From NCBI GenBank assembly GCA_001777655.1, contig MFER01000013.1, positions 2,619-66,618 of the forward strand: DNA of 64,000 nt, written 5' to 3'. Made by a program: the position numbers and the translations under genes. The notes under the pieces are model-generated. The model saw nothing but the letters and a program-made list of their open reading frames with translations, ran no database searches and was not told the DNA's origin. Of this stretch, positions 17,365-40,696 are shown piece after piece. This DNA comes from Candidatus Doudnabacteria bacterium RIFCSPHIGHO2_02_FULL_43_13b. GTDB lineage: Bacteria; Patescibacteriota; Doudnabacteria; UBA920; O2-02-FULL-48-8. Each line of letters begins with the position of its first letter. Within the stretch, counting starts at the first letter, position 1.

Positions 17365-17451
17365 TGGTGCCGGGGACAGGAGTTGAACCTGCACACCCTT
17401 TCGGGTACAAGGTCCTAAACCTTGCGTGTCTGCCAATTTCACCACCCCGGC
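17365..17451 (-). tRNA. tRNA-Leu (anticodon TAG), long variable arm
   Basis: Reverse complement GCCGGGGTGGTGAAATTGGCAGACACGCAAGGTTTAGGACCTTG...GGTTCAACTCC...CCA. Confidence 0.7.
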
Positions 17452-17525: not shown

Positions 17526-17783
17526 TTACTTATAGACTTCATGCGTCCCTACAGCATGAAAATATATTAATTCACTTGATGCAAGCTCAAAAACAATTCT
17601 GTGTTGATAGTCTATTGAAAAGGACCAAAAATCTCTTAGCCTGCCGGAAAGTTTATGAGTTTTAAGTTTAGGATCAAAAGGATTTTTACGAAATAACTTT
17701 TCTTTTTGTTCAGCAAGTGTTTTTATTTGTTGTGGCAGTTTCCGGTATTCCCTGGCGAATTTAGGAGAATAAACAATTTTCAT
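17526..17783 (-). CDS. RelE/ParE-family (YafQ-like) type II toxin
   Basis: 85 aa, ...DFWSFSIDYQHRIVFE...IYFHAVGTHEVY pattern; immediately downstream of RHH antitoxin. Confidence 0.6.
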   Translation of the reverse strand: MKIVYSPKFAREYRKLPQQIKTLAEQKEKLFRKNPFDPKLKTHKLSGRLRDFWSFSIDYQHRIVFELASSELIYFHAVGTHEVYK

Positions 17784-17784
17784 T

Positions 17785-18000
17785 TTACCTTAAATCCTTC
17801 AAACTCCGCAAAACCTTTCCACGGCCCCGAGCAATTTGCGTTTGGCTTTCTCGCAGCTCTTGTAATAATTGTTCTTCTTTCCAAAGCCTCATTAAATCTC
17901 GGACAAATTCACTTTTAGTCGCATACCCGCCTTTTTTTACAGCTTCCTCCACCTCTTTTTTTAAAACTTGCGGCATTGATATATTTATTATAGATCTCAT
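17785..18000 (-). CDS. ribbon-helix-helix (CopG/ParD-like) antitoxin
   Basis: 71 aa, KSEFVRDLMRLW RHH motif, 2-nt gap to toxin gene. Confidence 0.55.
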   Translation of the reverse strand: MRSIINISMPQVLKKEVEEAVKKGGYATKSEFVRDLMRLWKEEQLLQELRESQTQIARGRGKVLRSLKDLR

Positions 18001-18089
18001 ATTTTATTTAGCTTTAATAATATATAAGATTGTAATACAATGTGTTACCGTTGTCAAATCTTAAATTTGTTAATCCTCCTCGCTCAGTA

Positions 18090-18169
18090 TTGACAAAATC
18101 TTCAAAATCTGCTAGGATATGCTGTTTACATATTAATTTTGTCTTGCCAGAAGGACAGATATTATAATG
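18090..18169 (+). promoter_or_regulatory. two tandem sigma70-type promoters upstream of GC-island first gene
   Basis: TTGACA(18090-95)-17-TAGGAT and TTGTCT(18140-45)-18-TATAAT(18164-69); AAGGAAGG SD before ATG 18270. Confidence 0.45.
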
Positions 18170-18269
18170 TTATCTTTCCTTCCGGCAAAGAGAAATCTTC
18201 GCCGCCTATTTTTTACAGGAGGTTCTTTCATAAACGAATAGCTAGACAATATCACAAGGAAGGTGACGA

Positions 18270-19340
18270 ATGACAGAGGCCGCGCCAGACCCGGAGGCCA
18301 CTGGGCCCCCGGTGCCAGAACCCGCCAACCCAGGCAAGTGCCCGGGCTGCGGACAGCCGACTCAACCGACCGACGAGTTCTGCGGCCATTGTGGTATCGA
18401 GTTGATCGCCTCTTCTGTGCCGGCGGAAACCCCGCCGAACACAGATGATCCGCCGCTCGATCCCCCACGCGCCGAAGAACTCAAGTTACTCACCCTGCCC
18501 AAAACGCCGATCAACGTCTCGACGGCCGGTGCGACTCATGTCGGACTGGTCAAAGAGAACAACGAGGATACTATTTTTGTCACCGAGGTATCTTACCCGG
18601 TGCATAAAATCGCAGTCCACGTCATGATCGTCGCCGACGGCATGGGCGGAGAACCAGCTGGTGAAGTGTTCGGACAGATCGCGGCCTTGGAGACATGGCT
18701 GGGAATTCGCTGGCTGCTGCCCTTCGAGGAACAGCAACACGGATTTTCGCGCCTCGACTTCTGGCGCTTTCTGGACGGACAATTCACCAACCACCTACCA
18801 GCCCAAATTGCTGCGGCTAACTCGCGCATCCTTCGATACGCGAAAGCCAAGCAGTTGAAAGCCGGCCAGTGCGGCGCCACCATTGCGGTGGCTGTGGCAA
18901 TCTGCGACCTGGAAACAGGCCGCGTGAAAATCCACGGCTACAACGAAGGCGACGCCCGAGTGGGATTGGTCATTGACGGGAAGTTTCAGCTCCTGTCAAC
19001 AGATCAAACCATCTCGGGGTATCCGTTCCGGTTCTTGGGACGACACGAACACATCGGCGGAAACAAATTCAGCTGGGATGTTTGGATGAGTGAACAGCAA
19101 TTCCAATCCTTCTGGGTACTCGCGTACTCGGACGGGCTCTGGAACATGCTCTCGCCCGAACAGATCACCCAAGCCGCCGACTCAACCGCTGACCCCAAAT
19201 CGCTTTGCGACGTTCTGGTGGCCACCGCACTGACGGTGCGGGAACCACACGGACGAACGCTCGGCGACGAGAAGGTTACCACCGGAGATGACAACATCTC
19301 CATCACCACGTTCTACTGTCAAAAGGAGACCGACCGATGA
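18270..19340 (+). CDS. N-terminal C4 zinc-ribbon fused to PP2C-family Ser/Thr phosphatase
   Basis: CPGCG...CGHCG ribbon; PP2C motifs KENNEDT, VADGMGG, YSDGLWNML, DDNISITT; GC-rich. Confidence 0.75.
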   Translation: MTEAAPDPEATGPPVPEPANPGKCPGCGQPTQPTDEFCGHCGIELIASSVPAETPPNTDDPPLDPPRAEELKLLTLPKTPINVSTAGATHVGLVKENNEDTIFVTEVSYPVHKIAVHVMIVADGMGGEPAGEVFGQIAALETWLGIRWLLPFEEQQHGFSRLDFWRFLDGQFTNHLPAQIAAANSRILRYAKAKQLKAGQCGATIAVAVAICDLETGRVKIHGYNEGDARVGLVIDGKFQLLSTDQTISGYPFRFLGRHEHIGGNKFSWDVWMSEQQFQSFWVLAYSDGLWNMLSPEQITQAADSTADPKSLCDVLVATALTVREPHGRTLGDEKVTTGDDNISITTFYCQKETDR

Positions 19341-20617
19341 ACGTTCCACTGTCAGTCACTGTGCAGTCCCTGGTCGCGGCCATGCTGGCCAAGTCCGGGC
19401 TCCGTTCCCAGTTCCACCTCATGATCGAGGTGGGGCTTGGCAAGCTCGAACAGGCCATCAGCGCGGCCTGCGACTACGTGCTGCTCCTCGACGTTTCCGG
19501 CTCCATGAGCGGGATCGTCGGCGAGGTAAGCAAGCTCGATGCGCTCAAGGCGGCATGCGAAAACGTGATCAACCGATTCAACCCGGATGACCGCGTGAGC
19601 ATCATCGCCTTCGATGAACAACCCACCACGATGATGGCGCTCGCCAACTGCGACCACCGCGGCAAGACCGAGGCGATCAACACCGTCTACGGACTTGGTC
19701 TCGGCGGTGCCACCTGCTTCGCTTCGGCTCTGCTGGCGGCCAAGCAGCTGCTGCACGATTCCAGTCACAAGCGCGCCGTCTTGTTCTTCACCGACGGCGA
19801 AAACACCGGCGGCGGGGATCCCCTCCCTGTCGTGACCCAGATGCGCGAAGCCGGCATCACTCTCTACGCCGGCGGCCTGGGCGTCAACAACCAAGGCGAG
19901 CAGGTGCTCGACCAACTGGCGGGAGCCAACTTCCGCTCGCTTACCACCGCGGCCGATGTCGACGCGTTCCTCAAGGACGCGGCGGCGCAGGCAGCCGGAG
20001 CCATCGTCACCAACGCGCAACTTCGGCTGACCCCTGTGACGTTCGCCCAGGTCAACAACTTCGACCTGGTCGCACGGAACGGAACGCCGAACTACGCGCT
20101 CGCAGACAGCACGATGCGCCTCCTGCCCATCGGCGATCTGGCCGAAGGCGACCGCTACCAGGCCTACCTCGGCCTGAACATCGTTCTGCCCGAAGACATC
20201 CGGGCCGGACGGCGAGCGTTCGGCAAGGTTGAGGTCATCGGCGACGTCGTGGCCATGGGCATCAAAGGCCAGGTGCTGGCCCAAACCCCCATCGCAGTCA
20301 TGTTCGGCGACCAGGCGGTCGCCACGGTCAACTCGACCGTCAAGGACATGATCAACACAGCGGCGACTGCCCGCGAGCTCTACTTGGCGGGACAGGCGAC
20401 CAACACGGCGGACGCGGCGGCTCACGTGGCCAACGCGCGCAAGACCGCGGCGTTCTCCCAGGACGCTGTGGCCTCGGCACTGCGGGCACAGATGAGCACG
20501 ATCGAAGCCCAGATTGCCAAGGATCCCGACGCGGCGCAGAAGGCGGCGCGGCGGGCGACCCGCGGCTTCTCGGCTGAAGATGCGGCGGCGGCACTCCGGA
20601 ACCTGCGTCAGAGCTAG
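19337..20617 (+). CDS. von Willebrand factor A domain protein (TerY-like) with Ala-rich C-terminal region
   Basis: MIDAS DVSGSMSG, GGATCFASAL, FFTDGENTGG; start overlaps upstream stop (ATGA). Confidence 0.75.
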   Translation: MNVPLSVTVQSLVAAMLAKSGLRSQFHLMIEVGLGKLEQAISAACDYVLLLDVSGSMSGIVGEVSKLDALKAACENVINRFNPDDRVSIIAFDEQPTTMMALANCDHRGKTEAINTVYGLGLGGATCFASALLAAKQLLHDSSHKRAVLFFTDGENTGGGDPLPVVTQMREAGITLYAGGLGVNNQGEQVLDQLAGANFRSLTTAADVDAFLKDAAAQAAGAIVTNAQLRLTPVTFAQVNNFDLVARNGTPNYALADSTMRLLPIGDLAEGDRYQAYLGLNIVLPEDIRAGRRAFGKVEVIGDVVAMGIKGQVLAQTPIAVMFGDQAVATVNSTVKDMINTAATARELYLAGQATNTADAAAHVANARKTAAFSQDAVASALRAQMSTIEAQIAKDPDAAQKAARRATRGFSAEDAAAALRNLRQS

Positions 20618-20674
20618 TCTCTGGCGCAGGAGCAAGTTCACACGCGACTTCAACCCCTTTCAAGGAGATTCATC

Positions 20675-21100
20675 ATGGTCTGCCCAAACTGCTCTACCCC
20701 GGTTCCGACTGGCGAACAGTTCTGCCCCGGATGCGGCACGGAACTGACCAGCGCTGACCCCACCAACACGCCGACCCCGACTACCGATGCCAGCGCCAGC
20801 TCCCAGCCGGCACTCGCCACGCTCACGTACGGCGCGACCAACATCCCACTGCGCGAGGGCAGCAAGGTGATCATCGCGCGGGAAGGCACAGACAAGTGCA
20901 CGCCCGACCTGGCCATCAACTCCGATGGCGTCTCCTCGACTCCGGTCGAGGTCAGTGTCGAGAACGGTGTGATCACCGTTCGCGATACCGGCACGAGCGT
21001 CGGGATCCGGGTGGTCAAGTACATCAAGCCCGGCGGCTCGATGACGGTCGAGCCCGGCGACATGGTGATGCTCGGCAACGAGATCATCGCCGTCGGGTAA
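20675..21100 (+). CDS. zinc-ribbon plus FHA-like phosphopeptide-binding domain protein
   Basis: CPNCS...CPGCG ribbon, Pro/Thr linker, then TLTYG...IIAREG...PDLAIN...VSSTPVEV...NGVITVRDTGTSVGIRV FHA-like pattern. Confidence 0.55.
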   Translation: MVCPNCSTPVPTGEQFCPGCGTELTSADPTNTPTPTTDASASSQPALATLTYGATNIPLREGSKVIIAREGTDKCTPDLAINSDGVSSTPVEVSVENGVITVRDTGTSVGIRVVKYIKPGGSMTVEPGDMVMLGNEIIAVG

Positions 21101-21124
21101 GTAGTCTCTAGCTATTCGAGTTCC

Positions 21125-21180
21125 GAGAGAAGGCGCGAAGGAAACCCAAATTTCCTTCCCCTTCTCTCATTCTTTCTTTA
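21125..21180 (+). terminator. rho-independent terminator inside GC island
   Basis: GAGAGAAGG...CCTTCTCTC stem with nested GAAGGAAA/TTTCCTTC, followed by ATTCTTTCTTTA. Confidence 0.5.
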
Positions 21181-21285
21181 TTGAGAATGCTATGGAATTA
21201 AAAATTTGATTTCATGGCGGTCTCTGTAAAGACCACAGTTCTTTTCGTCAACAATCAAGCACATTCCGCCAGGAGGCGGATCATC

Positions 21286-23031
21286 ATGGACAAATACTGT
21301 CCGTCATGCAAGCTTGTCCTCCCACCAACCGCGAAGCGGTGTACTGCTTGCGGTAAGATCGCAACGCTCTCCCCCAACACCGTCGTCAACTCCGGCGCTG
21401 ATCGATACACCATTGACTCGGTGCTCGGCATCGGCGGCATGGGCATCGTCTACCGAGCGACTGACAGCTTCAGCTTGACTGCCGTGGTCAAGCAGCTGCA
21501 CGTTGACAACCCGGCCGATCTGCCGGATGCCCAGCGCCGCTTCAAGCGCGAAGCCCAAGTCCAGGCCGGACTCAATTCCCCCTTCTATCCGGCCGGCTAT
21601 GGCTACTTTGTGGACCAAAACCTCGAGTTCATGGCCATGGAGTTCGTGGCTGGCCGAGATCTCGAAAAAACCCTGACGACTTTGGGCGGCAAGATGAGCG
21701 AAGATGAGGTGTTGCGGCTAGGAATCCAGATTTGTGACGGACTATCAGTCCTGCACAACCACATTGACCCCGCCACCAACACACCGGAACCGCACGTTCA
21801 CCGTGACATCAAACCGGCCAACGTAATTCTCCGGCCGTCGGGCCAGATCTGCATTCTGGATCTGGGCATCGCGCGGACCCTGAATCAATCGGCCGGCACA
21901 CAGGTGCGCGCCACGCGCGCTGGCACGTTCGAATACGCCAGTCCGCAGCAGGTTTCGGGAACGGACATGTCAATCCGCGACGATATTTATTCGCTCGCGG
22001 CGACCCTGTTCCATCTCGTCACCGGAGCGCCGTTTACTGGGGACTTCACCCAGCGTGCGGCGGAAATCGACGCTCTGCCTCCCACCTGGCGTGCCGCCTT
22101 CCGACGGGCAATCCACAACGACACCAACTTACGGCAGCGCAGTGTCGATGAGTTCAAGACCGATCTCATCGCCCTGCTTCCGCCGCAGTTGCGACCCGCC
22201 CTACCTGCCCCCGCGGGAGCCCCCGCTCCGATCCCAGCCACTGGCTTTCTTTCCATCCGCTGGCGAGTGACCCTCCCCTACATGACCAACCCTAACGAAT
22301 GGGTGCAGTCGGTAGCGGGCCAGGTCATCCAAGGCACCGTCGGCATGCCGGGCGTAAACATCGTCCCGATCATGACCGATACCGGAGCCGGGGCGATGGC
22401 TCACAACACGCGCGGCGCTTCGGTCAACACCGGGCCTCACGGCGACTTCGGACTGAATCTGCCTGACGTGACCATTCCAGTCACGGTGGACAGGCGGCAG
22501 ATCATCGTCATCGTCGAGGACCCCAACTCTGGACAGGAGCTCTATCGGGAAACCGTGGAGCTCAATCGGCCCGGGGTGGCGCGTCGGATACAAGCCCGTG
22601 GTGGGGCGGGTGTCCGAGCGGCTGCTCATGCCGCAGCCGCGCCGTTTCAGGCAGTCGGGCATGCTATGGCAGCAGGCGCTCGTGGCCTCGGCCGCGGGAT
22701 CGCTTGGCCGTTTCAGAAGCTGTGGCAAGTCGGAACTGCGTTGACGGGAATCAAAACCGTCCTCGCAATCGCCGGCCTGTTCATGGCTGCCACGCTCGTC
22801 CTGGCCCGGCTCCAGCAGTCGATGCCGTTTGTGCTCTACATCTGGCCGCATACGTGGATTGCGGCGTTGGCTTCGGCCTTCGTTGCATTCCGGATGCGCA
22901 GACGTGGCGGCATCTTCACGGCGAAAGTCAAACAGCGATCGCTCGGCCAAGCGCTGCGAAGCCCTGTCCTTATTGCCACCGTCACGATGTGGGCGGCGGC
23001 AACGATCGGCTGGGTCTTCGGTCCGCACTAA
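21286..23031 (+). CDS. zinc-ribbon plus Hanks-type Ser/Thr protein kinase with C-terminal TM segments
   Basis: CPSCK...CTACG ribbon; GIGGMGIVY...VVK, HRDIKPANVIL, DLGIAR, SPQQ; AGGAGG SD before ATG 21286 (ORF-track start 21214 probably too early). Confidence 0.75.
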   Translation: MDKYCPSCKLVLPPTAKRCTACGKIATLSPNTVVNSGADRYTIDSVLGIGGMGIVYRATDSFSLTAVVKQLHVDNPADLPDAQRRFKREAQVQAGLNSPFYPAGYGYFVDQNLEFMAMEFVAGRDLEKTLTTLGGKMSEDEVLRLGIQICDGLSVLHNHIDPATNTPEPHVHRDIKPANVILRPSGQICILDLGIARTLNQSAGTQVRATRAGTFEYASPQQVSGTDMSIRDDIYSLAATLFHLVTGAPFTGDFTQRAAEIDALPPTWRAAFRRAIHNDTNLRQRSVDEFKTDLIALLPPQLRPALPAPAGAPAPIPATGFLSIRWRVTLPYMTNPNEWVQSVAGQVIQGTVGMPGVNIVPIMTDTGAGAMAHNTRGASVNTGPHGDFGLNLPDVTIPVTVDRRQIIVIVEDPNSGQELYRETVELNRPGVARRIQARGGAGVRAAAHAAAAPFQAVGHAMAAGARGLGRGIAWPFQKLWQVGTALTGIKTVLAIAGLFMAATLVLARLQQSMPFVLYIWPHTWIAALASAFVAFRMRRRGGIFTAKVKQRSLGQALRSPVLIATVTMWAAATIGWVFGPH

Positions 23032-23058
23032 AACACCAAGGAGGTGTTCGATAGGTTT

Positions 23059-23115
23059 CGGAGGGAAGTGTTCAGGTTTCAACCCTGACACTCCCCTCCA
23101 CCCTTTCTTTATAAA
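23059..23115 (+). terminator. rho-independent terminator inside GC island
   Basis: GGAGGGAAGTGT...ACACTCCCCTCC stem then T-rich tract. Confidence 0.5.
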
Positions 23116-23264
23116 TCTTTTAGCTCAAATTTTTAGTTCCAAAACTTGGAGCCAGAAACTTGGGCTCAAAAATCCCAAGACGGTTCTTTTGAATCAAATA
23201 GTTTAGTTCTAGTTGTTCGTTTCGTCAACCAGCTTCAGAGCCGCCTAGGTGCGGGAGGTGAGTC

Positions 23265-24122
23265 ATGGCAGAGAAAGGCAGAATCGTGAAGCTGAATCCG
23301 AAAGGGTTTGGCTTTGTCTCCCGCGCTGGCGGCCGAGACGTGTTCGTTCCATCCTTCGAGCTCCAACGAAGTAGGGCTGGGATGAATGATGAAGTGGAGT
23401 TCGAGGTTGGTCCTGACCCGAGAAATCCGGGAAAGGAAATGGCTTCGAGCCTGACGGTGGTTGCGAAAGCGGCCCCGTCAGCGCCACCAACGCCACTCGC
23501 ACTTGGGGTGGCGTGGAAATTCGGTACGGTCGTCAAGGGCTTCTTGCCCGTGATGATCGTGGTGATGCGCGGAAACGTCGCTGCGCTGGATCTGATAGTG
23601 AAGTTGATGGCTAATGGGAAGCGAGTTTCGAATCCCAAGGCCACGCTTTCACCGGACAGCGCCGGCACGGTGACGTTCGTGGTCGAGCTGGTGAAGGTGG
23701 GTCTGCCAATGGATGCCAACCAGTGCGTGCTGATGGCCCAAATCAACGGGCAGATCTACAGCACGCTTTGGGAAGCCGCCAAGGCACCCGCGCCAACGCC
23801 AGCCAAGCCGCCCGAGCCACCGAAAGTGGAGCGGCTCAACATCAGCACGGACCGGATTTACACCTACCGCGTAACTTTCGCCCCTGGGGTTGAAGTCAAT
23901 GTGGAAGGAGTGATTCCGATCCAGTTCCGCCAGCACGGCAAGATCAGCTGGTCCAACCAGCCGGTCCCTGCCGAGCCTGACGGCACGCTGATGGTCGAAG
24001 TGCAAGTCACCCAAGACGGCGCGCGTGGAGACGTGTTCTTCCTCGCTGCCGGTCTTCGTTCGAAACCCGAATACGTCACCCACGTCAATCCGCCGGTGCG
24101 ACCCGCACCGGCCAAGAAGTAG
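23265..24122 (+). CDS. hypothetical protein with N-terminal cold-shock/S1-like OB domain and Pro-rich segments
   Basis: GRIVKLNPKGFGFVSRAGGRDVFVP...EVEFEV resembles CSD; remainder unknown. Confidence 0.4.
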   Translation: MAEKGRIVKLNPKGFGFVSRAGGRDVFVPSFELQRSRAGMNDEVEFEVGPDPRNPGKEMASSLTVVAKAAPSAPPTPLALGVAWKFGTVVKGFLPVMIVVMRGNVAALDLIVKLMANGKRVSNPKATLSPDSAGTVTFVVELVKVGLPMDANQCVLMAQINGQIYSTLWEAAKAPAPTPAKPPEPPKVERLNISTDRIYTYRVTFAPGVEVNVEGVIPIQFRQHGKISWSNQPVPAEPDGTLMVEVQVTQDGARGDVFFLAAGLRSKPEYVTHVNPPVRPAPAKK

Positions 24123-24133
24123 GAGAACGAACA

Positions 24134-24772
24134 ATGGCAGACACACCGAAGGGCGGCAGTCATACCATCAAAGATTTTCTTTTTGATGGTTTCCGTGAGC
24201 TGTTCGTCACCCACGGCCTCCCCATGATGGTCAAACTGGCTAACCGAGCCAGTGAGACAAGACTTGCGGAGAGAGAGGGGCGGAAACGCAACAAGCACTA
24301 CTTCGCGGCCGCCATGGTCAAGCTTCGGCTGCGCGATGGTCGCGCCGCCGACGTGATCGGCGACTTTGTCGATCACTGGCTCAACACTGACGCTGACCGC
24401 GAGGATTTTCAACACAACGCGGCCTGTGTCGGCACGGACAAGGACGAGAAGATGGGCGACACGGTGGAATTCCTCTGGCAGCTGGCACATCTGCCTGATC
24501 ACGCCGCTCGTGAAGTCCATCTGACTGCTCTTGGCTTCATCGGCGCACGCAGCGTCGACATGGCTGAGAAGGCAGTGGAGTTGCTCAAGCGGGTTCGTGA
24601 CGAGGTCAAGGACCTGCCGGCTGATGCCAAGAAGAAATTGAACGAAGGCACCAAGGCACTGCGGGAACTCAACAACAAGCAGTGGATGCAGAATGCCGAG
24701 AAGTCCTCGGCAGCATTCAGACAGACAGCAGCCACCCGGCTGACGGGCTACAGAGCTCGCCGGCGTTCGTAG
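24134..24772 (+). CDS. hypothetical protein
   Basis: 212 aa GC-rich ORF with SD (GTAGGAGAA) at correct spacing; no motif recognised. Confidence 0.35.
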   Translation: MADTPKGGSHTIKDFLFDGFRELFVTHGLPMMVKLANRASETRLAEREGRKRNKHYFAAAMVKLRLRDGRAADVIGDFVDHWLNTDADREDFQHNAACVGTDKDEKMGDTVEFLWQLAHLPDHAAREVHLTALGFIGARSVDMAEKAVELLKRVRDEVKDLPADAKKKLNEGTKALRELNNKQWMQNAEKSSAAFRQTAATRLTGYRARRRS

Positions 24773-24783
24773 GAGAGACTCAC

Positions 24784-25635
24784 ATGATCACGATCCTTGG
24801 AATTCTCATCTACGGGCTGATTGTCTGGTGCTTGTTCAGTCCGCGCGTTCGCAACCAGGTCCGCGACGTCCTCGTCGGGGCCTGGGACTACCTGCAACTG
24901 GGTGGCCTCAGCGCCTACGACGCTGCGGTCGCTTTCCTCTACGGGCTCATCGTGCTCGTGGTGGTGGACATCGTGGTCCTAATCATCGCAGTGGCGATCG
25001 GCATCCCCGGGATCTTGGTTGCCTTCTTCGTCACCAACGCGCTGCTGTGGTTCGTGCCGATGTATGTGCTGTGGCTTCTGCATCTGCCAGTGGCAGCGGC
25101 AGGGGCCCAGATCAGGTGGTTGGGAACAAAATTGGGGTCCGTCCCACTCTTGTTTTTCCCATTTTTCCCAGTCCGACTGATCGGCCGGTGTGTTCACGCA
25201 GTTGGCACGATCGTCGTGCTCTCGGCAGCGCTGGCGCGCTGGATGACCGGGTTGCTGGTGCAAGTCACTCTCATCTCCTTGCTTCTGTCAGGGCTGGCCC
25301 TGCTGGACTTGGAGATGGGATGGCACATCGTCAATCCGTTCACCATGACGATGGCGGGACTGCTGTGGATGACGATCACATCACTGCAGATCTTCCGCCA
25401 AACCCACCCGGGTTCTGTCGGAATCAAAATCCTGGGGCGGGCGGCAATCGGTGTACTACTCGCGGTCGGAGTAGTCCACTACTGGCCGCTTTGGAAAAGT
25501 GTCGGGCTCAGCGTTCTGAGCTTCGATTTCGGCGATGAGGAAATGATGTTTCGAGGCCTCATCGTCGTGGCGCTGCTGGCGGCTCTCGTCGTTGGCCTGC
25601 GCACTCGCAGCTCATCATCAACAACCGCTCGCTGA
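24784..25635 (+). CDS. hypothetical polytopic membrane protein
   Basis: TAGGAGAG SD then ATG 24784 (MITILGILIYG...); 7-8 hydrophobic helices. Confidence 0.45.
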   Translation: MITILGILIYGLIVWCLFSPRVRNQVRDVLVGAWDYLQLGGLSAYDAAVAFLYGLIVLVVVDIVVLIIAVAIGIPGILVAFFVTNALLWFVPMYVLWLLHLPVAAAGAQIRWLGTKLGSVPLLFFPFFPVRLIGRCVHAVGTIVVLSAALARWMTGLLVQVTLISLLLSGLALLDLEMGWHIVNPFTMTMAGLLWMTITSLQIFRQTHPGSVGIKILGRAAIGVLLAVGVVHYWPLWKSVGLSVLSFDFGDEEMMFRGLIVVALLAALVVGLRTRSSSSTTAR

Positions 25636-25647
25636 GGAGACACGGAC

Positions 25648-26436
25648 ATGAAAAAAGTGCTAATCAGCGTCGCGACGTTCGTGTTCATCCTCGCAGCGGG
25701 ATCTGGGGTTGGCTTGCTGTGGACCAGTTTCTTCCCGCCGGAAGAGCGGGGGGTCAGGGTTGCCACGACTGATGCCAACGGAATGGTCAAAGCGCACGCA
25801 GGTGACGCCAAGACCATTCTCAAGCAAACCGGCTTCCGCGGCGGCAACGGCCGGGTCAGCGTGACGATGTTTAAGGACACCAGAACACCGGTGTCTATGG
25901 ATATCGCCAATGCCAGGCAAGCTCGCGACGAGCAAATCGCCATTGCTCGCGGCGGGTTCCTGCCAGCGCCGGATCGGTTCCTCGAAGGCTACACCCACGA
26001 CTGGGTGAGCAGCGGGATTCCGGTCTACACCTGCACGCACGTTACGGCAGCGGGTAGGATCACTCGAGATCCCATCACCGCTGCCGGGCCAGACGGCATC
26101 AATCTGGATGCCATGAATGCAGAAACGCGCAGCGCGTTTGTGCAAGAACATGGCGACAGGGCCAAGGTGCTCCCTGGGGTTCCCTGGGGAACGTTCATCG
26201 GCAAAGTCTGCGCAGACGCTGGCGGGAACAGCTGTCAAACGCCGTTCCCAATCGGCCAAAGCGCGTACCTGTCGGCTGAGCGGGTCGGTGCAGGGACGTT
26301 GTGGATCTGGACCAACGGTTTCGTAGCCCAATCAAGTACGGGGCTGTTGAATCGTTCGGACTTCAACGTCTATCAGGGCGGCTTCCGGTTCGAGCACGAG
26401 GCCGCGCCTGAATACAAGTGTAAGGGGGGGTTCTAG
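25648..26436 (+). CDS. hypothetical secreted protein
   Basis: Signal peptide MKKVLISVATFVFILAAGSG; GAGGAG SD. Confidence 0.4.
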   Translation: MKKVLISVATFVFILAAGSGVGLLWTSFFPPEERGVRVATTDANGMVKAHAGDAKTILKQTGFRGGNGRVSVTMFKDTRTPVSMDIANARQARDEQIAIARGGFLPAPDRFLEGYTHDWVSSGIPVYTCTHVTAAGRITRDPITAAGPDGINLDAMNAETRSAFVQEHGDRAKVLPGVPWGTFIGKVCADAGGNSCQTPFPIGQSAYLSAERVGAGTLWIWTNGFVAQSSTGLLNRSDFNVYQGGFRFEHEAAPEYKCKGGF

Positions 26437-26473
26437 TCCGTCGGCAGGTTCGCTTGCCAGCGGAGCAACACCG

Positions 26474-26520
26474 GGGTGTTGGGAAGACCACAAATCTTCT
26501 CACACCCCGCTTTTTTATTT
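26474..26520 (+). terminator. rho-independent terminator
   Basis: GGGGTGT...ACACCCC stem followed by GCTTTTTTATTTT. Confidence 0.5.
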
Positions 26521-26572
26521 TGCGAAGCAAAATACCCCGACCTTTAGCGTCGGGGTCATAAATATCAATGCC

Positions 26573-26601
26573 TTGACTTTTTGTAGCTTTTTTGATATTA
26601 T
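26573..26601 (+). promoter_or_regulatory. sigma70-type promoter for last island gene
   Basis: TTGACT-17-TATTAT, then AAGGAGGG SD 7 nt before ATG 26691. Confidence 0.4.
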
Positions 26602-26690
26602 ACTTCGTCGCATTCATCATTTCTTTTTTCGCGACATTTATACGATACGTTCAATTCGCACACTCTCAAGTCCAAGGAGGGACTTTACCA

Positions 26691-27685
26691 TGAAGCGCGC
26701 TCTACTCGTCGCTCTCGTTTTCGTCGCACTGGGCATGCCAGCAATGGCTGCTCAGACGCCACCCTCACCGATTTTCGAGCAAAAGCTCGAGGCGGTGGCG
26801 GTGAAAACTGTTACTTCGGTTCCCGTGCTTCTCGCGGAGATCGCGAAGAAGCACCAGCTCCAAGTCTCGATCGACGAAAAACTGGACATGGATCGGATGT
26901 ATTTGGGCGAAGTCCCGGCTGGGACGCTGAAAAGCCAGATCGAATTTCTGGCCAAGCAGTGGGACGGCAGCGCAAGTTTGGTCGGAGGCGACTCGGTCGT
27001 CATCCTCTCGACCAAGTCTTTGCCCACCAAGGCCAAGGAGACCCCGACCGCAACCACGCCGCCACCCACCACGCCCCCCCAACCCCTGCCACAGCAAACG
27101 ACAGTTGCCCGGTTGCCCTACCCATCACTGTCGGCCGCAGTAATGTCCGACAGCATGCTACCGATAACCGGGCCCACCTGGATGGACCTTCGGATGCAAG
27201 AATACAACGCCTGGGCAGAAGCCAACCAGGCATACCGAACATTCCGGTCCGCCCAGCCGTACTACTTCGGGGCTGACCAGGTCTATTCGGACGCGTACTA
27301 CCAAGGCGGGTACGGCGGTGGACTCATGTGGGGCAATCAGTTGCTCCGAATCAAAGGAGCCGCCACCCACGGCTACCTAAAAATAAACGCCATCGGCGAC
27401 ACGAAGTTTATCAAGTACGTCGTGGTGCTGCGACAGGACACGGACGGCGTTTGGATTACGGAGGGCTCCGCTGGAAAGTCCTTCCGAGATTTTCACGAGC
27501 CGATCGAGCTACCCGTCGGACGGTGGCGACTGCGGTTTGAGCTACGGAGGGATGGAGTGACCAAGTACTTGGAAGAGGTGTTTAACATCGAATCCAAGTA
27601 CGATCTATTCCATCCCAAGCAGTACGCCATTTCGGAAGAAATGATGAGAAGCTTTGGTACAACCGAAGCTATCATCAGGCGCTGA
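26691..27685 (+). CDS. hypothetical secreted protein with Pro/Thr-rich linker
   Basis: Signal peptide MKRALLVALVFVALGMPAMAAQ; TPTATTPPPTTPPQPLPQQTT linker; ORF-track start 26573 is upstream read-through. Confidence 0.45.
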
Positions 27686-27699
27686 CGGCGACGCTGAAA

Positions 27700-27745
27700 A
27701 CGCCAAAGGCCGACACCCTCCGGGTGTCGGCCTCTTTTTTTATAT
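27700..27745. terminator. bidirectional hairpin terminator at right edge of GC island / end of pilin array
   Basis: GGCCGACACCCTCCGGGTGTCGGCC perfect stem flanked by A-run and T-run. Confidence 0.55.
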
Positions 27746-27760
27746 TAGCTTGTTTAAAAC

Positions 27761-28123
27761 TTAGATTCCGCGACCTCCCGGTAGCAGCGCATTCCCAATT
27801 ACTATCACAATAACGTAAGATAGAATAATTATTATCAACCCGATGATCGAATTTTGAATAATTTTTTTGGCTGATTCTGCTTGTTCTTCATTCCCGGCAG
27901 ACGTGATGTAGCGAAAACCGCCGTAAATCAGAAAGGCTACTGCCAGAACACCAACGACTCCCAAAAATACTTTTATATAGTAATTGAATACCGTTGTAAA
28001 CGTAGACGATTGGTTTCCTGGAAGAGTAGTTTGATTAATTGGAATAATTTGTTGAGCCAAAACAATCACTGGCACCAAGAGGCTGAATAGGGCAAGTTGA
28101 ATTGTCTGTTTCAGATTCTTCAT
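27761..28123 (-). CDS. type IV secretion system pilin-like protein (VirB2/TrbC-like, CPR type), paralogue 1
   Basis: Signal peptide, two hydrophobic helices separated by GGFRYITSAGNEEQAESAKKII loop. Confidence 0.55.
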   Translation of the reverse strand: MKNLKQTIQLALFSLLVPVIVLAQQIIPINQTTLPGNQSSTFTTVFNYYIKVFLGVVGVLAVAFLIYGGFRYITSAGNEEQAESAKKIIQNSIIGLIIIILSYVIVIVIGNALLPGGRGI

Positions 28124-28139
28124 TTTAGAGTTTTTAGGA

Positions 28140-28511
28140 TTAAACCTGACCGCTGACTAGGGCGTTGGAGATAACGCGGACGATGACGAAAGCCAAGATA
28201 ATCACGACGATACCGATAATGGCGTTGGTGATAATCTTTTTGGCTTGTTCGGCCGTCTCTTCATTCCCGGCAGATGTGATGTAGCGGAAACCGCCGATGA
28301 TTAAGAACAATACAGCAATCAAGCCGGCAATGGCCAGAGCGATATTGATGATCCGCAGCACGAATGTCGAAACCCGATCATCGCCCGGCAAGCCGGTTCC
28401 TCCCGGGCTGGGAGTTTGAAATTGTGCCAATGCCACGGGAGTAAGAACGAAAGCCAAAGTCAAAACTATCGACAGTATCGGGACGAGTTTAGAGGTTGAA
28501 AGTTTTTTCAT
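28140..28511 (-). CDS. T4SS pilin-like protein, paralogue 2
   Basis: GGFRYITSAGNEETAEQAKKII loop motif, same architecture. Confidence 0.55.
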   Translation of the reverse strand: MKKLSTSKLVPILSIVLTLAFVLTPVALAQFQTPSPGGTGLPGDDRVSTFVLRIINIALAIAGLIAVLFLIIGGFRYITSAGNEETAEQAKKIITNAIIGIVVIILAFVIVRVISNALVSGQV

Positions 28512-28594
28512 CTTTGTTTTTCCCTTTCTATTTCTTATCCGCCGAAGCTTTATGCGAAGGCGGATATTTCGACCTTTAAGGATATTTAAATTAA

Positions 28595-28960
28595 TTAAAC
28601 CTTGCCAAAGAAAGCGTTCATTATCACTACCACAATTATGTAAGAGAAGATCGTAACGACTAAACCTATTATAGCATTAGTCAGGGTTTTTTTGCCAGTG
28701 GTGGCCGCTTCCTCGTCCCCGCGGGAGGTAATGTATTGAAAACCGCCCAGGATAATGAATAAAACTGAAAGCAAGCCAACAATGCCTAAGAGTGCTTGGA
28801 CAATAAACAGTAAAATTCCGGCAAAGGTATTGCCACCGGTTCGGTTGGCGAAATTCACCAAATACTTATCGGCGGGGTTGGTAAAATTAACCGCCCAAAC
28901 AGTTAACGGAGCAATCAAACCCGCTAGGCTGGGTAAAACAAATTTTGTGATTTTCTTCAT
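28595..28960 (-). CDS. T4SS pilin-like protein, paralogue 3 (start at internal MKKITKF; track start 29041 likely too early)
   Basis: GGFQYITSRGDEEAATTGKKTL loop motif. Confidence 0.5.
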   Translation of the reverse strand: MKKITKFVLPSLAGLIAPLTVWAVNFTNPADKYLVNFANRTGGNTFAGILLFIVQALLGIVGLLSVLFIILGGFQYITSRGDEEAATTGKKTLTNAIIGLVVTIFSYIIVVVIMNAFFGKV

Positions 28961-28962
28961 GT

Positions 28963-29619
28963 CTAGCCTCCGAAAAAAGTTAGGGTTGCTCGAACCAAGA
29001 CGTACGATAGTATTATAACACCTAAACCAATCACCGCCCACTGCAGGCTTTGTTTGGCGCTGGTAACTTGTTCTTCATCCCCCCGGGCAGTGGCGTAACG
29101 AAAGCCGCTGACGATGATCATCAAAATCGCCATGATACCAACCACTGACAAAAAGCCGGTTAACATCCGGATCAAAAAATCCAAGAAGGTATTATCAAGG
29201 AGCGGATTACGCACTGGGTTGTTGCCAATATAGGAACTCGGGGCCAAATCTTTCGCTCCCAAATAATCGGCCATGGCATTGACAATGATAAAAGCAAATA
29301 AAGACAAAATTAATCCTGACAGCGCCCACTTCAGTCCATCCTTGGCTGTGGTTAAGGCTTCAGAGTTGCCTTGGGCAACAATCATCCGAAAACCGGCAAA
29401 GATAATCATTATTAGAGCGGTAATGGCGAAAAAATTCGTAAAAGAGGCAATCACAGCAAAGATAAACTCGCCCAAATCGTCAAGAGAATACCGAATCGGA
29501 TTGCACAAATTCGTGTTGGTGCTACCCGGGACACAATCACTGCTTTGTTGCGCCAACGCGACGGAGGAGGTTGAAAATAAAACCAAACCAATAAATAAAG
29601 CGATAAGAAAAATTTTCAT
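28963..29619 (-). CDS. tandem-duplicated T4SS pilin-like protein (two pilin domains fused), paralogue 4
   Basis: Two copies of the helix-loop-helix unit (AGFRMIVAQGNSEALTTAKDGL and SGFRYATARGDEEQVTSAKQSL). Confidence 0.5.
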   Translation of the reverse strand: MKIFLIALFIGLVLFSTSSVALAQQSSDCVPGSTNTNLCNPIRYSLDDLGEFIFAVIASFTNFFAITALIMIIFAGFRMIVAQGNSEALTTAKDGLKWALSGLILSLFAFIIVNAMADYLGAKDLAPSSYIGNNPVRNPLLDNTFLDFLIRMLTGFLSVVGIMAILMIIVSGFRYATARGDEEQVTSAKQSLQWAVIGLGVIILSYVLVRATLTFFGG

Positions 29620-29623
29620 ATAA

Positions 29624-30037
29624 TCATCTGATATTTTTCAAAATATTATCCAAAGCCCCGGCTCCCGGGTTAGTACTGGTCAACAACCCGACAATTACAT
29701 TGACCAATAAATACGCGGACATAATCAAGAAAAATCCAATGATCGCGTGCTTAAAAGTATCTTTACCGACGGTGATCCGCTCTTGGTTGCCGCCGGAATT
29801 CATCATTTCCCACCCTGCCCAAAGAATAAAGAAAATCGAAACCAACCAGGCCCAGGCCAGCAGATAATTGATTATCCGCTCAACCGTAAAAACCATATCA
29901 ACCAGCTGACAACCTGTTTGGGCGCTGCCATCGGGATTCCGACCGCCGCAGGTGATGAGTTGCGCCGAAGCAAAATTAGCAGTTAGTAACACTGCGAGAA
30001 AAAAACTGGCCAGGATAATTTTTATTTTTGGTTTCAC
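29624..30037 (-). CDS. T4SS pilin-like protein, divergent paralogue 5
   Basis: AGWEMMNSGGNQERITVGKDTF loop motif, signal peptide. Confidence 0.45.
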   Translation of the reverse strand: MKPKIKIILASFFLAVLLTANFASAQLITCGGRNPDGSAQTGCQLVDMVFTVERIINYLLAWAWLVSIFFILWAGWEMMNSGGNQERITVGKDTFKHAIIGFFLIMSAYLLVNVIVGLLTSTNPGAGALDNILKNIR

Positions 30038-34592: not shown

Positions 34593-34726
34593 TTCAACAT
34601 CCGTTAAGTTCAAGATAATTAAGCCAATATCCGTAAAAAGATAGGCATTTTTATATCTAACCAAAACTTGACGTTGGGCTTTCCATTCGATAGATTTTAC
34701 AAAATAAGTAATGAAAATGTAATTTT

Positions 34727-40690: not shown

Positions 40691-40696
40691 ATTTTT

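Follow-up and report, generated by a model that had tools for sequence, protein, structure and literature searches.

The question raised by this locus is whether nine GC-rich genes (g1 to g9), lying in a 64,000-nucleotide stretch of a low-GC bacterial chromosome (the window), were imported as a stress or defence island or belong to their host, and what their signalling genes might control.

Composition and boundaries of the block

A high-GC island at 18050-27750 of a low-GC, CPR-type chromosome had been proposed in a first-pass annotation, which asked for GC and tetranucleotide scores as checks. Both bore the island out, and the host is indeed of CPR type, Candidatus Doudnabacteria. The GC-rich block is real and spans 18270-27735. 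Its GC content is 0.597 over 18270-27685 versus 0.418 in the remaining window (z = 10.8, relative to host 9.4-kb segments with mean 0.415, sd 0.017 and maximum 0.437), and its tetranucleotide L1 distance is 0.611 versus 0.140 ± 0.031 (z = 15). GC3 is 0.67-0.83 in the block genes and 0.23-0.59 in adjacent host genes. The proposed left edge had to be moved, as the GC step coincides with the g1 start codon at 18270, and 18001-18269 is an AT-rich (0.32 GC) promoter region and leader of g1. On the right, the block ends at a terminator. Between g8 and g9 lies a 253-nt spacer (GC 0.45), which contains the promoter-like site of g9.

Table 1. Features of the locus and its neighbours (positions in the window)
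Feature	Position	Strand	Description
tRNA-Leu(TAG)	17365..17451	-	ARAGORN, Rfam; adjoins FtsH and slot
Type II toxin-antitoxin pair	17526..18000	-	AT-rich; YafQ/RelE-like toxin 17526-17783, RHH antitoxin 17785-18000
Sigma-70-like promoter candidates	18090..18168	+	TTGACA-17-TAGGAT with TG; TTGTCT-18-TATAAT; consensus matches only
g1, ZnR-PP2C phosphatase (putative eraser)	18270..19340	+	N-terminal 4-Cys Zn-ribbon and PP2C
g2, ArnB-type tripartite vWA protein	19337..20617	+	Split beta-sandwich, vWA with intact MIDAS, C-terminal helical bundle
g3, ZnR-FHA-like (candidate pThr reader)	20675..21100	+	4-Cys Zn-ribbon, Pro/Thr/Ala linker, C-terminal FHA-like beta domain
g4, ZnR-Hanks Ser/Thr kinase (putative membrane-anchored writer)	21214..23031	+	Zn-ribbon, kinase, conserved cytoplasmic beta-rich region, 2-3 C-terminal TM helices
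g5, CSD/Ig-like	23265..24122	+	N-terminal cold-shock/OB domain (KGFGFV...VFV), then beta-rich Ig-like regions
g6, soluble helical protein	24134..24772	+	No hydrophobic segment
g7, polytopic membrane protein	24784..25635	+	About 6 TM by hydropathy; BLAST to L008 d3
g8, N-terminally anchored or exported protein	25648..26436	+	Hydropathy; BLAST matches in core-less slots
Promoter-like site for g9	26573..26601	+	TTGACT-17-TATTAT with TG; consensus match only
g9, secreted protein	26690..27685	+	Signal peptide, Pro/Thr linker, C-terminal domain (hydropathy)
Intrinsic terminator, strong	27707..27733	+	12-bp stem, 9 G-C pairs, T-run; common to cassette and convergent pilin array
Five VirB2-like T4SS_pilin (PF18895) genes, array	27761..30037	-	Pfam, L001 gene calls, local HMM scan

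Signalling core and envelope genes

The first four genes had been read as PP2C, vWA/MIDAS, FHA and Hanks-type kinase proteins. The PP2C, vWA and kinase assignments are supported at the domain level, but the FHA assignment is without a Pfam match; the combination of vWA, PP2C, Ser/Thr kinase and candidate pThr reader as a package is present in g1-g4. For g1, scores of 25 bits with Pfam PP2C (cut-off 20.3) and 66.9 bits with NCBIfam Stp1_PP2C were obtained; across 9 homologues, C24/C27/C38/C41, E99-D100, D123-G-M-G126, S287-D-G289 and D340-D-N342 do not vary, and the stop codon of g1 lies in a 4-nt overlap with the g2 start. The vWA domain of g2 scored 69.6 bits, and its MIDAS residues (D52-x-S54-x-S56, T126, D153) are invariant in 16 sequences. 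Its N-terminal beta1-beta2 region is likewise invariant in homologues, and the C-terminal helical bundle carries two invariant Thr motifs, ARKT370xxF and RRAT408xGF; no match to the ArnB_C Pfam signature was found at E ≤ 0.1.

In g3, a Zn_Ribbon_1 match (31.3 bits) accompanies residues invariant in 12 homologues (C3/C6/C17/C20, R69, S87, T89, G106-T107, G128-x-M130). Family profiles matched the FHA structure 1uht at E = 0.008 and 0.067; R69 and S87 are FHA-like landmarks, other residues stand in place of the canonical FHA His and Asn, and a single-sequence structure model reached a pLDDT of only 44. g3 is described as a Zn-ribbon protein with a candidate FHA-like domain. For g4, Pkinase scored 101 bits; the G-loop, K93, E113, HRD-K-N and DLG, together with T229/T234/T238 of the activation loop, are invariant in 11 homologues, and TM segments were assigned from hydropathy. 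Its true start is probably M25 (21286), since other gene calls give a form of 581 aa and alignments with homologues begin at residue 25.

The next five genes had been annotated as CSD-like, membrane and three secreted. The CSD-like and membrane assignments hold for g5 and g7, but only g8 and g9 appear exported, as g6 is without TM segment or signal sequence. The CSD score of g5 is below cut-off (23.2 bits), with a PDB Csp match at E = 0.003 and family scores of 32.5 bits (L041) and 24.9 bits (L043); it belongs to a 7-member BLAST cluster, and the family also occurs in slots without the signalling core. g6, of a fast-evolving family, returned no Pfam, NCBIfam, PADLOC or PDB match and falls in a 4-member cluster including the core-less L034 and L036. 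Relatives encode one fused protein of 543-589 aa, whose N-terminal half is the counterpart of g7 and whose exported C-terminal half may be that of g8; g8 shares a 10-member BLAST cluster with g7 and L008 d3, and matches proteins in core-less slots at 37% (L036) and 38% (L042). g9 represents the most widespread slot family, a 14-member cluster across 12 core-less slots, and always adjoins the pilin array. Its UniProt label, 'Secretin/TonB short N-terminal domain-containing protein', was not reproduced by a Pfam search. Going by short or overlapping junctions, g5-g8 are taken as co-transcribed with the core.

The nine genes had been considered one package. This was not upheld, as in Doudnabacteria species that lack g1-g4 the same GC-rich slot is taken up by homologues of g5-g9: members of the g5, g6, g7/g8 and g9 families lie in 15 core-less slots, all of them GC-rich, and in kinase-less genomes these genes always adjoin a VirB2-like pilin array. 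Most Doudnabacteria lack the core, which only some lineages have; to account for its patchy distribution on the FtsH tree, it must either have been lost several times or have been passed on within the lineage. By gene content, g1-g4 is read as an add-on layer and g5-g9 as a lineage-wide envelope module. As the two layers can be separated, the core could have another target.

Residency of the locus in Doudnabacteria

The slot lies between the pilin array and tRNA-Leu-FtsH-RNase III-SMC, and the relatives L008, L012, L020 and L023 have the cassette in that slot too; its gene order is shared by at least 10 lineages. Identity of cassette proteins declines in step with that of host proteins (FtsH 67-82%): in L008, FtsH is 82% and the core proteins 59-65% identical, and in L012 the corresponding values are 67% and 49-69%. 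Downstream genes diverge very fast, with 26-42% identity where FtsH is at 82%. Four-fold sites are near saturation, at random identity between relatives, and GC4 is still 0.58-0.98; slot or cassette GC exceeds that of the flanks in 24/24 loci examined (mean difference +0.11). On the favoured reading, the persistent GC-richness would be a property of the block coding sequences, actively maintained and not an import relic.

As the first-pass annotation had stated, a toxin-antitoxin pair (YafQ_toxin 33 bits, RHH_1 25.3 bits) and a tRNA-Leu adjoin the block. Relatives do not share the pair at this place, where it is missing from L008 and L012. The tRNA-Leu lies beside the cassette in the window, L008, L012 and L023, and no duplicated tRNA end was found at it; its position beside FtsH and the slot is conserved and is not the mark of an integration.

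Sharp compositional contrast is the sole support for an assembly chimera, in which a GC-rich fragment of another organism would have been mis-joined into a CPR contig. Both junctions are identical, gap-free and at 99.99-100% identity, in five assemblies from different assemblers and samples (including ENA k141 contigs of up to 156 kb, MFFB01000006.1 and JGI 3300002502), and therefore the block is not a chimera; more than 20 other genomes share the arrangement, leader and spacers within the block resemble the host in being AT-rich, and this explanation is effectively refuted. The same contrast could mark a recently acquired island at the tRNA-Leu and toxin-antitoxin pair, carrying a TerY-P-type stress or defence triad with cargo. 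The left-edge neighbours, the patchy core and a gene set that fits the TerY-P composition of vWA, PP2C and kinase (PMC11090510) speak for it. However, no integrase, recombinase or att-like direct repeat was found at the block, diverged relatives have the tRNA in the same syntenic place, slot position and GC excess hold in all 24 loci, with synonymous sites saturated, g5-g9 occur without the core, and no donor lineage outside this CPR group was found in 5.8 billion proteins, among which vWA family scores fall from 650 bits directly to 56 bits. TerY-P membership also fared poorly: g2 is ArnB-like and tripartite, with no tblastn match to enterobacterial plasmids; g1, g2 and g3 gave no match to PADLOC models even at E = 10; and the Zn-ribbon of the TerY-P kinase is described as C-terminal (PMC11090510), whereas that of g4 is N-terminal with C-terminal TM helices. 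The absence of ter genes (terD/terZ/terB) near the cassette was seen as claimed. Because integrase and att repeat are missing, the conserved slot is near synonymous saturation and no donor was found, recent acquisition, to which the earlier annotation had leaned, is unsupported, and the island explanation is very improbable. The best reading is a long-resident, vertically inherited Doudnabacteria locus, not freshly imported DNA; jointly with the two-layer ArnAB-like reading below, it is given an even chance.

Candidate function and comparison with known systems

The pilin genes are host-like in composition and convergent with the cassette; VirB2-like pilin arrays are reported from Patescibacteria (PMC12102498). 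Across the 64-kb window, T4SS_pilin genes are confined to this array, and none were found elsewhere in it or in 5' flanks. They directly follow the cassette in the window, L008, L012, L020 and L023, and also in an independent S21-YqeY-FtsA context (L011, L021/L022); counted as independent genomic contexts, these are about two and not seven. No pilin lies within about 6 kb of the core in L108; in L107 a HepT/MNT pair comes after the core, and the contig stops there.

By analogy, and with about equal weight for and against, we suggest an ArnA/ArnB-type Ser/Thr phospho-switch controlling a pilin-linked envelope apparatus in a resident two-layer locus. The g4 kinase would phosphorylate Thr in the C-terminal helical bundle of g2 (candidates T370, T408); g3 would pre-dock via its Zn-ribbon, then bind tightly via its FHA-like domain; and g1 would reset the switch. 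The N-terminal Zn-ribbons of g1, g3 and g4 are alike, so all three may dock at one common surface of g2. Such a switch would control the adjoining apparatus, as ArnAB controls the archaellum, with the first layer made up of predicted cytoplasmic CSD/Ig-like, soluble, polytopic membrane (with exported domain) and secreted proteins beside the convergent pilin array. No paper describing this signalling package for a Doudnabacteria host was found.

TerY-P-like modules have been reported as defence systems in their own right (PMC11090510), and an anti-phage or conflict system of this kind, or one akin to kinase-based abortive infection, would have the kinase, phosphatase and vWA sensor trigger g7 as membrane effector or the g5 CSD as RNA-binding effector. 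Fast divergence of the downstream genes, kinase-domain scores of g4 with PADLOC PD-T4-6 (169 bits) and mad6 (142 bits), and a weak likeness of the g5 CSD to the retron Se72 effector, the TOTE S1/CSD domain and PADLOC CSD_V are consistent with this. Yet the kinase matches span the generic catalytic domain only, the other core proteins are without PADLOC match, the chromosomal position is fixed lineage-wide and not that of a variable defence island, the real defence/mobile region of the window (34.6-46.3 kb) holds Shedu and a methylase, and exported proteins such as g8 and g9 are unusual among abortive-infection effectors; a defence role is unlikely. Clusters of FHA, PP2C and Hanks kinase genes tied to cell-wall growth are well known, and general envelope or division signalling, as by actinobacterial FhaA/FhaB-PstP-PknA/B, would make the pilins incidental and the FtsH/FtsA position meaningful, the cassette following FtsH in one lineage set and FtsA in another. 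Transcription is, however, divergent from FtsH with the tRNA and variable small genes between, the operon is free of division genes such as SEDS or PBP, the co-transcribed genes are g5-g8, and a core missing from most Doudnabacteria does not fit a core division function, which leaves this explanation improbable.

The phospho-switch is likened to an archaeal module. As in ArnB, a motility regulator, g2 is a tripartite vWA protein, and as in ArnA, g3 combines a 4-Cys Zn-ribbon with a beta domain bearing FHA-like landmarks; the Sulfolobus phosphatase is PP2A, whereas g1 is PP2C. Among bacteria, a vWA-STK-FHA-PP2C operon of Deinococcus includes a kinase, DRA0332, with C-terminal TM helices, as in g4.

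Base composition and chromosomal setting of the block

For the block of nine genes (g1-g9), a GC content of 0.597 (18270-27685) was determined against a window background of 0.418. Host segments of the same length (n = 46) had a mean GC of 0.415 (sd 0.017, maximum 0.437), placing the block at z = 10.8, and its tetranucleotide distance from the rest was 0.611 against a reference of 0.140 ± 0.031 (z = 15). The GC-rich block with GC3 bias described in the first-pass annotation was thus borne out, far beyond chance. GC3 of the nine genes ranged from 0.67 to 0.83 (0.23-0.59 in neighbouring host genes) and GC at four-fold sites from 0.69 to 0.85 (0.43-0.66). Codon choice differed accordingly, with TTA making up 1% of leucine codons in the block and 25% in host genes, ATC 80 and 27% of isoleucine codons, and AAG 68 and 22% of lysine codons; Ala, Gly, Pro, Arg, and Thr were raised, and Lys, Ile, Glu, and Asn lowered. 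As to the edges, the terminator expected near 27.72 kb could be located (12-bp stem, 27707-27733), but the left GC step coincides with the start codon of g1 at 18270 rather than lying at 18050. The leader before it (18001-18269) has a GC of 0.32 and contains sigma-70-like hexamers.

Five public assemblies, produced from separate samples with different assemblers, contain the block and both junctions at 99.99-100% identity to the window and without gaps (including a 156-kb contig, MFFB01000006.1, JGI 3300002502), and an assembly chimera was rejected on these grounds. On contig L002 the gene calls differ (an antisense 429-aa ORF and a 581-aa kinase) and the sequence does not; these differences arise from gene calling in GC-rich DNA. 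Outside the block the chromosome is of the ordinary CPR kind, with SMC, RNase III, FtsH, tRNA-Leu(TAG), and a YafQ/RelE-RHH pair on one side and five T4SS_pilin (PF18895) genes and a solute-binding protein on the other. The interval between the pilin array and the tRNA-Leu-FtsH-RNase III-SMC genes is referred to here as the slot.

Proximity to the tRNA-Leu and the toxin-antitoxin pair had been taken as a sign of acquired DNA, a reading that was not supported. No integrase or recombinase is encoded among the nine block genes, att-like repeats were not found, megablast of the block against plasmids gave no match, and the tRNA-Leu beside the cassette is part of a synteny conserved in relatives; a recent, mobile, or integrative island was dropped for these reasons. 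In all relatives examined, the slot is filled by homologous GC-rich genes, with no presence/absence polymorphism at the tRNA, and an Rfam scan returned no RNA family in or beside the island except the tRNA. The locus serves as a caution that compositional islands beside tRNAs need not be imports.

Small AT-rich genes between tRNA-Leu/FtsH and the slot differ from genome to genome (L029 9722-9979, L042 9722-9979, L029 8830-9207, and L030 9412-9789). Among them are ORFs that start with MFFVY(I/V)LKSLKD, GIY-YIG-like in appearance, or with MKY(K/T)(R/K)FEELPIWQESLKL, and the toxin-antitoxin pair of the window sits where relatives carry these variable genes. This stretch seems to collect small selfish genes.

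An outside donor was considered by way of the protein families themselves. In a 5.8-billion-protein index, searched with a single sequence or a profile as the query and with the same outcome, the vWA (g2) family proved very small: about 17 clusters scored at least 650 bits (46-99% identical to g2), and the next match scored 56 bits. Exhaustive phmmer with the C-terminal half of g2 recovered 17 proteins in 1.84 billion, the family of Zn-ribbon PP2C proteins (ZnR-PP2C, g1) showed the same pattern in the protein search, and a GTDB scan with vWA peptide patterns found no relative. Both families are small and CPR-restricted, with a cliff to generic domains, and an outside donor was rejected on this basis. 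GC in the slot exceeds that outside it in 24 of 24 loci, whether g1-g4 are present or absent (mean difference +0.11, range +0.005 to +0.178), and four-fold-site GC is 0.58-0.98 in every cassette lineage. At conserved residues, identity of four-fold sites across lineages is close to the saturation expectation (for the window and contig L012, 0.38 with 0.34 expected in the vWA gene, and 0.32 with 0.31 expected in the kinase gene). The GC excess has therefore outlived saturation of synonymous sites and is no fading relic of import.

The shift extends to all three codon positions and to amino-acid composition, and so looks like directional pressure on coding sequence. A purely regional mutational effect is argued against by the larger internal spacers (113, 233, and 253 nt), where GC is 0.39-0.45, near the genome average and far under that of coding sequence, with the proviso that these spacers are of limited length and contain sequences resembling promoters and terminators. 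Candidate causes of the GC-richness are biased gene conversion at an often-recombining locus, selection on codon usage or mRNA properties, and adaptation to expression elsewhere. A coding locus whose GC lies 5-18 points over that of its genome across a whole lineage despite saturated synonymous sites offers a clean natural case for the upkeep of local base composition. Elsewhere in the window, a second, isolated GC-rich gene (GC 0.56, GC3 0.66) encodes a 200-aa beta-rich protein with a signal peptide, for which neither a Pfam match nor significant similarity to the slot families was found; this secreted product hints that the GC effect may concern exported proteins more generally.

Signalling core and envelope module

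The block consists of a signalling core (g1-g4) and an envelope module (g5-g9). Coordinates of the core genes and of other features of the window are collected in the table.

Coordinates of core genes and other features in the window
Feature	Position	Strand	Description
ORF from public gene calls	8152-8673	-	173 aa; PaaX_M and CRISPR_Cas2 Pfam matches
g1	18270-19340		4-Cys Zn-ribbon fused to PP2C phosphatase
g2	19337-20617		vWA protein, 426 aa; 4-nt overlap with g1; 200-residue C-terminal extension
g3	20675-21100		4-Cys Zn-ribbon, Pro/Thr/Ala linker, beta-rich domain
g4	21214-23031		Zn-ribbon, Hanks kinase, conserved beta-rich region, 2-3 C-terminal TM helices
Pilin array	27761-30037		Five tandem T4SS_pilin (PF18895) genes
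Direct repeat	27807-27923 and 28180-28296		117 nt, 73% identity, between first two pilin genes
Split ComM/YifB-like Mg-chelatase gene	33927-47129		ChlI N-terminal part 33927-34592; Mg_chelatase C-terminal part 46290-47129
Tyrosine integrase	34727-35635		In ComM/YifB insertion
DNA methylase	35663-36616		In ComM/YifB insertion
Shedu SduA-like protein	37664-38959		In ComM/YifB insertion
LOOT RNA (Rfam RF03000)	39403-39523	+	In ComM/YifB insertion; 78.9 bits, gathering score 46.4
Large serine recombinase	44614-46347		In ComM/YifB insertion
Isolated GC-rich gene	59358-59960	+	Secreted beta-rich protein

The PP2C domain of g1 was matched by Pfam at 25 bits (cut-off 20.3) and by NCBIfam Stp1 at 66.9 bits, and nine homologues all preserve its metal-binding motifs (ED, DGMGG, SDG, and DDN) unchanged. 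For g2, the MIDAS residues (D52-x-S54-x-S56, T126, and D153) are invariant and the N-terminal beta1-beta2 region almost so, and the tail contains ARKT370xxF and RRAT408xGF, both invariant. A confident AlphaFold model of g2 (pLDDT 83, pTM 0.79) was obtained from a 16-sequence family alignment. In it, a pair of strands at the N terminus completes a beta-sandwich, and a vWA domain and a helical bundle make up the rest; ordinary vWA domains in the PDB align with it over ~170-200 residues only. The kinase g4, whose true start is probably M25 (21286), carries its Zn-ribbon at the N terminus (C29/C32/C43/C46 invariant), and all catalytic residues and three activation-loop threonines are invariant. 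Judged by these residues, kinase and phosphatase appear catalytically intact. No PADLOC model matched g1-g3, even at E = 10.

Assignment of g3 was less direct. Zn_Ribbon_1 was matched at 31.3 bits, with the four Cys invariant across 12 homologues, and no FHA domain was called by Pfam. Family profiles of 4 and 12 members matched the FHA structure 1uht with E = 0.008 and 0.067, and a family profile matched the Vps64 FHA structure 6a8w with E = 0.98. Conserved residues R69 and S87 occupy FHA phosphothreonine-binding positions, other residues take the place of the canonical His and Asn, and a single-sequence AlphaFold/AF2 model (pLDDT 44) was unusable. Because of the missing Pfam call, the weak E-values, the replaced residues, and the unusable model, g3 is termed FHA-like, and its FHA assignment is unproven. 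Of the four domains proposed for these genes, PP2C, vWA, and Hanks kinase were confirmed by Pfam/NCBIfam and FHA was not; the matches to g1, g2, and g4 uphold the reading of a phospho-signalling package of the vWA/PP2C/kinase type.

In the envelope module, g5 has an N-terminal cold-shock domain (CSD), weak in the window and at 32.5 bits in one homologue, g6 is a soluble protein, g7 has about six TM segments, and g8 and g9 have N-terminal hydrophobic leaders. No match to g6-g9 was found in Pfam, NCBIfam, PADLOC, or PDB sequences, the last searched with g6, g8, and g9, and Pfam applied to 20 downstream homologues from relatives gave only CSD and weak Big_1 matches. The C-terminal part of g8, and that of d3, a downstream gene on contig L011, may resemble a LecA/PA-IL-type lectin motif; g7 could be VirB6-like, and no TrbL/VirB6 Pfam match was obtained for it. 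Packing is operon-like, with the g1/g2 overlap and gaps of 11-12 nt between g5, g6, g7, and g8.

Slots lacking g1-g4 (core-less slots) were surveyed through FtsH, by retrieving representatives of 18 Doudnabacteria species in which this protein is 76-85% identical to that of the window. Genes g1-g4 are absent from all 18. The pilin array and the stretch up to FtsH were visible in 15, and every one of these stretches is GC-rich, 3-8 kb long, and on the same strand as the window cassette. BLAST clustering of the slot genes gave families for g9 (14 members), g7/g8 (10), g5 (7), and g6 (4). From this clustering in core-less genomes, g5-g9 can be described as a lineage-wide module by the pilin array, with g1-g4 as an addition in some lineages.

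Distribution of the cassette and association with pilins

The gene order PP2C, vWA, ZnR/FHA-like, kinase, followed by three or four fast-evolving genes, is constant on all carrying contigs (L008, L011, L012, L014-L018, L020-L023, L107, and L108; at least 10 lineages). On L008 and L012 the slot of the cassette corresponds to that in the window, between SMC/RNase III/FtsH plus tRNA-Leu and the pilin array, and on the shorter contigs L020 and L023 a pilin array follows the cassette, with tRNA-Leu seen upstream in L023. A second slot, after S21-YqeY-FtsA and before a pilin-domain gene, is used on L011 and L021/L022. Cassette and pilins lie next to each other in two independent contexts, one at FtsH and one at FtsA; there is no nearby pilin in the L108 context, and the L107 contig ends before one could show.

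Core proteins are 59-65% identical between the window and L008 (FtsH 82%, RNase III 78%) and 49-69% between the window and L012 (FtsH 67%, RNase III 64%), declining in step with the host genes. By FtsH phylogeny, L030, which lacks the core, groups with the window and L008, which have it, and the core-positive L012 is sister to all other Doudnabacteria. Such a pattern is compatible with an old core that was lost several times, or with exchange inside the lineage. L107, a distant relative of the cassette, carries two tandem g3-like genes (12417-13265), one complete ZnR/FHA-like gene (143 aa) and an FHA-like-only copy of 75 aa, and a HepT/MNT toxin-antitoxin pair directly after the kinase. FtsH of the related, Doudnabacteria-like contig L008 (5064-8264) has 1066 aa, with an intein (Intein_splicing, LAGLIDADG) in its AAA domain, and that of the window has 625 aa and no intein.

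The five pilin genes of the window are divergent in sequence and form an array by the definition of at least two PF18895/PF04956 genes. No pilin genes occur elsewhere in the window or in the 5' flanks, and neither VirB4 nor VirB6 was identified among the window genes scanned. The direct repeat within the array reflects paralogy. To our knowledge, nothing is known of the regulation of CPR VirB2-like pilin arrays or T4SS, and no paper was found that links such arrays to a Ser/Thr switch, a conserved GC-rich gene set, or a GC-rich neighbouring locus. In Patescibacteria, 441 VirB2-like pilin arrays of 2-11 genes have been described, one is reported to be essential in cultured Ca. Southlakia epibionticum, and such arrays and T4SS are among the few features experimentally tied to an epibiotic CPR lifestyle (PMC12102498). 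The array studied here is like these in its tandem, divergent PF18895 genes and differs in the added GC-rich set and Ser/Thr operon. Attachment of a conserved Ser/Thr switch and envelope genes to a pilin array provides a concrete, testable hypothesis.

Further along the window, the ComM/YifB-like gene is split by an insertion of ~11.7 kb (GC 0.33-0.41), which encodes an integrase, a methylase, a Shedu-like protein, and a recombinase, and contains the LOOT RNA; this insertion looks like the window's real mobile/defence element. Neither a CRISPR array nor further cas genes came to light near the ORF with PaaX_M and CRISPR_Cas2 matches.

Comparison with known phospho-signalling systems

The TerY-P triad (Anantharaman, Iyer and Aravind 2012), taken here from its summary in PMC11090510, combines a TerY-like vWA protein, a PP2C, and a kinase whose Zn-ribbon is C-terminal. 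It is associated with ter or with restriction systems, and in variants an OB fold replaces the kinase Zn-ribbon (PMC11090510). The cassette likewise encodes a vWA protein, a PP2C, and a Ser/Thr kinase in one operon (g2, g1, and g4), in an order kept in at least 10 lineages; its signalling proteins bear Zn-ribbons, and an OB/CSD domain (g5) is encoded right after the kinase, as a separate gene, whereas the OB fold is fused to the kinase in the TerY-P-like defence modules of Gao et al. 2020. The Zn-ribbon of g4, however, is N-terminal and its C terminus membrane-spanning, where the ribbon of the TerY-P kinase is C-terminal, and a separate Zn-ribbon/FHA-like gene (g3) is present. TerY is a short vWA-only protein, while g2 is tripartite and ArnB-like over its 426 aa. 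Neither the nine island genes nor the scanned flanking genes include ter, restriction/DNA-processing, or CoCoNuT genes, and tblastn of g2 against 72,556 plasmids returned generic vWA genes only, none from an enterobacterial plasmid; vWA matches on Nostoc and Deinococcus deserti plasmids were set aside as lying in unrelated contexts. In view of these differences and the missing PADLOC match, the cassette is not filed as TerY-P, and it may still work in a similar way. From the proposed match to TerY-P, the co-occurrence of three domain types and the absence of ter genes could be retained; other defining features, such as the C-terminal Zn-ribbon of the kinase, could not.

A closer parallel is offered by the ArnAB module that modulates archaellum expression in Sulfolobus acidocaldarius, where ArnB has a tripartite fold as in g2, and ArnA has an N-terminal zinc finger, which docks on the beta1-beta2 loop and helical bundle of ArnB, and an FHA domain, which binds tightly once ArnC and ArnD have phosphorylated threonines of the bundle, a step reversed by PP2A (PMC6509490, PMC12852372). 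In both systems the partner of the vWA protein begins with a 4-Cys zinc ribbon, and g3 keeps the domain order of ArnA with an FHA-like domain, unproven as FHA, at its C terminus. A Hanks kinase and a Ser/Thr phosphatase, in the cassette the candidate writer and eraser, are likewise common to both; the Sulfolobus module controls a surface filament, and the window cassette adjoins a pilin array. The system described here differs in being bacterial (CPR) rather than archaeal, with its four parts in one operon, a PP2C in place of PP2A, zinc ribbons on kinase and phosphatase as well, a membrane-anchored kinase, and VirB2-like T4SS pilins instead of archaellins. No sequence similarity between g3 and ArnA could be detected, and no ArnB_C (IPR040929) Pfam match to g2 was found at E ≤ 0.1; as modelled, the similarity of g2 to ArnB is structural only.

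The analyses establish which domains are present, that catalytic and MIDAS residues are intact, that g2 folds in three parts, that the kinase is anchored in the membrane, that the genes are packed as in an operon, and that their linkage to g5-g9 and pilins is conserved. Beyond this, a mechanism may be proposed. The kinase g4 would phosphorylate the tail of g2, where T370 and T408 lie in R-[KR]-(A)-T-x-x-F motifs, g3 would read the phosphorylated tail, and g1 would erase the mark; the three Zn-ribbons may share one docking surface on g2, and the output would act on the envelope module and pilin array. If so, the ArnA/ArnB (Sec23/24-like) vWA-FHA switch would extend from archaeal motility to bacterial surface filaments. 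A further-reaching proposal, which we regard as unlikely, is that the slot is a host-contact control locus, at which an ArnAB-type switch gates a VirB2-like pilus/envelope apparatus in an episymbiont and the GC-richness stems from an active, locus-specific process. That process could be biased gene conversion driven by repeated DNA exchange at the locus, or control of expression through codon usage; at the most extreme, the genes would be tuned to be expressed in a GC-rich host cell once the T4SS has transferred them.

Related bacterial arrangements can also be named. In the threonine phosphorylation pathway of the Pseudomonas H1-T6SS, an envelope machine is gated post-translationally by the Hanks kinase PpkA with its vWA domain, the PP2C PppA, and the FHA reader Fha1, a set of domain types comparable to that of the cassette. 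The vWA domain of that pathway is periplasmic and fused to the kinase, and no T6SS genes occur in the window. In Deinococcus radiodurans, an operon under study encodes a vWA protein (DRA0331), a kinase with three C-terminal TM helices (DRA0332), a FraH-like FHA protein (DRA0333), and a PP2C (DRA0334) (bioRxiv 10.64898/2026.01.23.701218). The four domain types encoded together (FHA-like in g3) and the C-terminal TM helices of the kinase are shared with the cassette, but gene order differs, DRA0334 has a KI-FHA domain instead of a Zn-ribbon, and the window operon runs on into the envelope module and pilin array. Among Deinococcus plasmids, the best vWA match to g2 reached 28.6% across that domain, and its genomic context is unrelated. 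Caci_2163 (PDB 4FX5), a vWA protein from structural genomics, was grouped with these bacterial vWA/kinase/Zn-ribbon-FHA/PP2C operons.

No published description of the cassette was found for a Doudnabacteria host. By comparison with these systems, it is ArnAB-like or a bacterial vWA-FHA-PP2C-kinase operon; what is new is its attachment to a lineage-wide envelope module by a VirB2-like pilin array and its persistent compositional anomaly.
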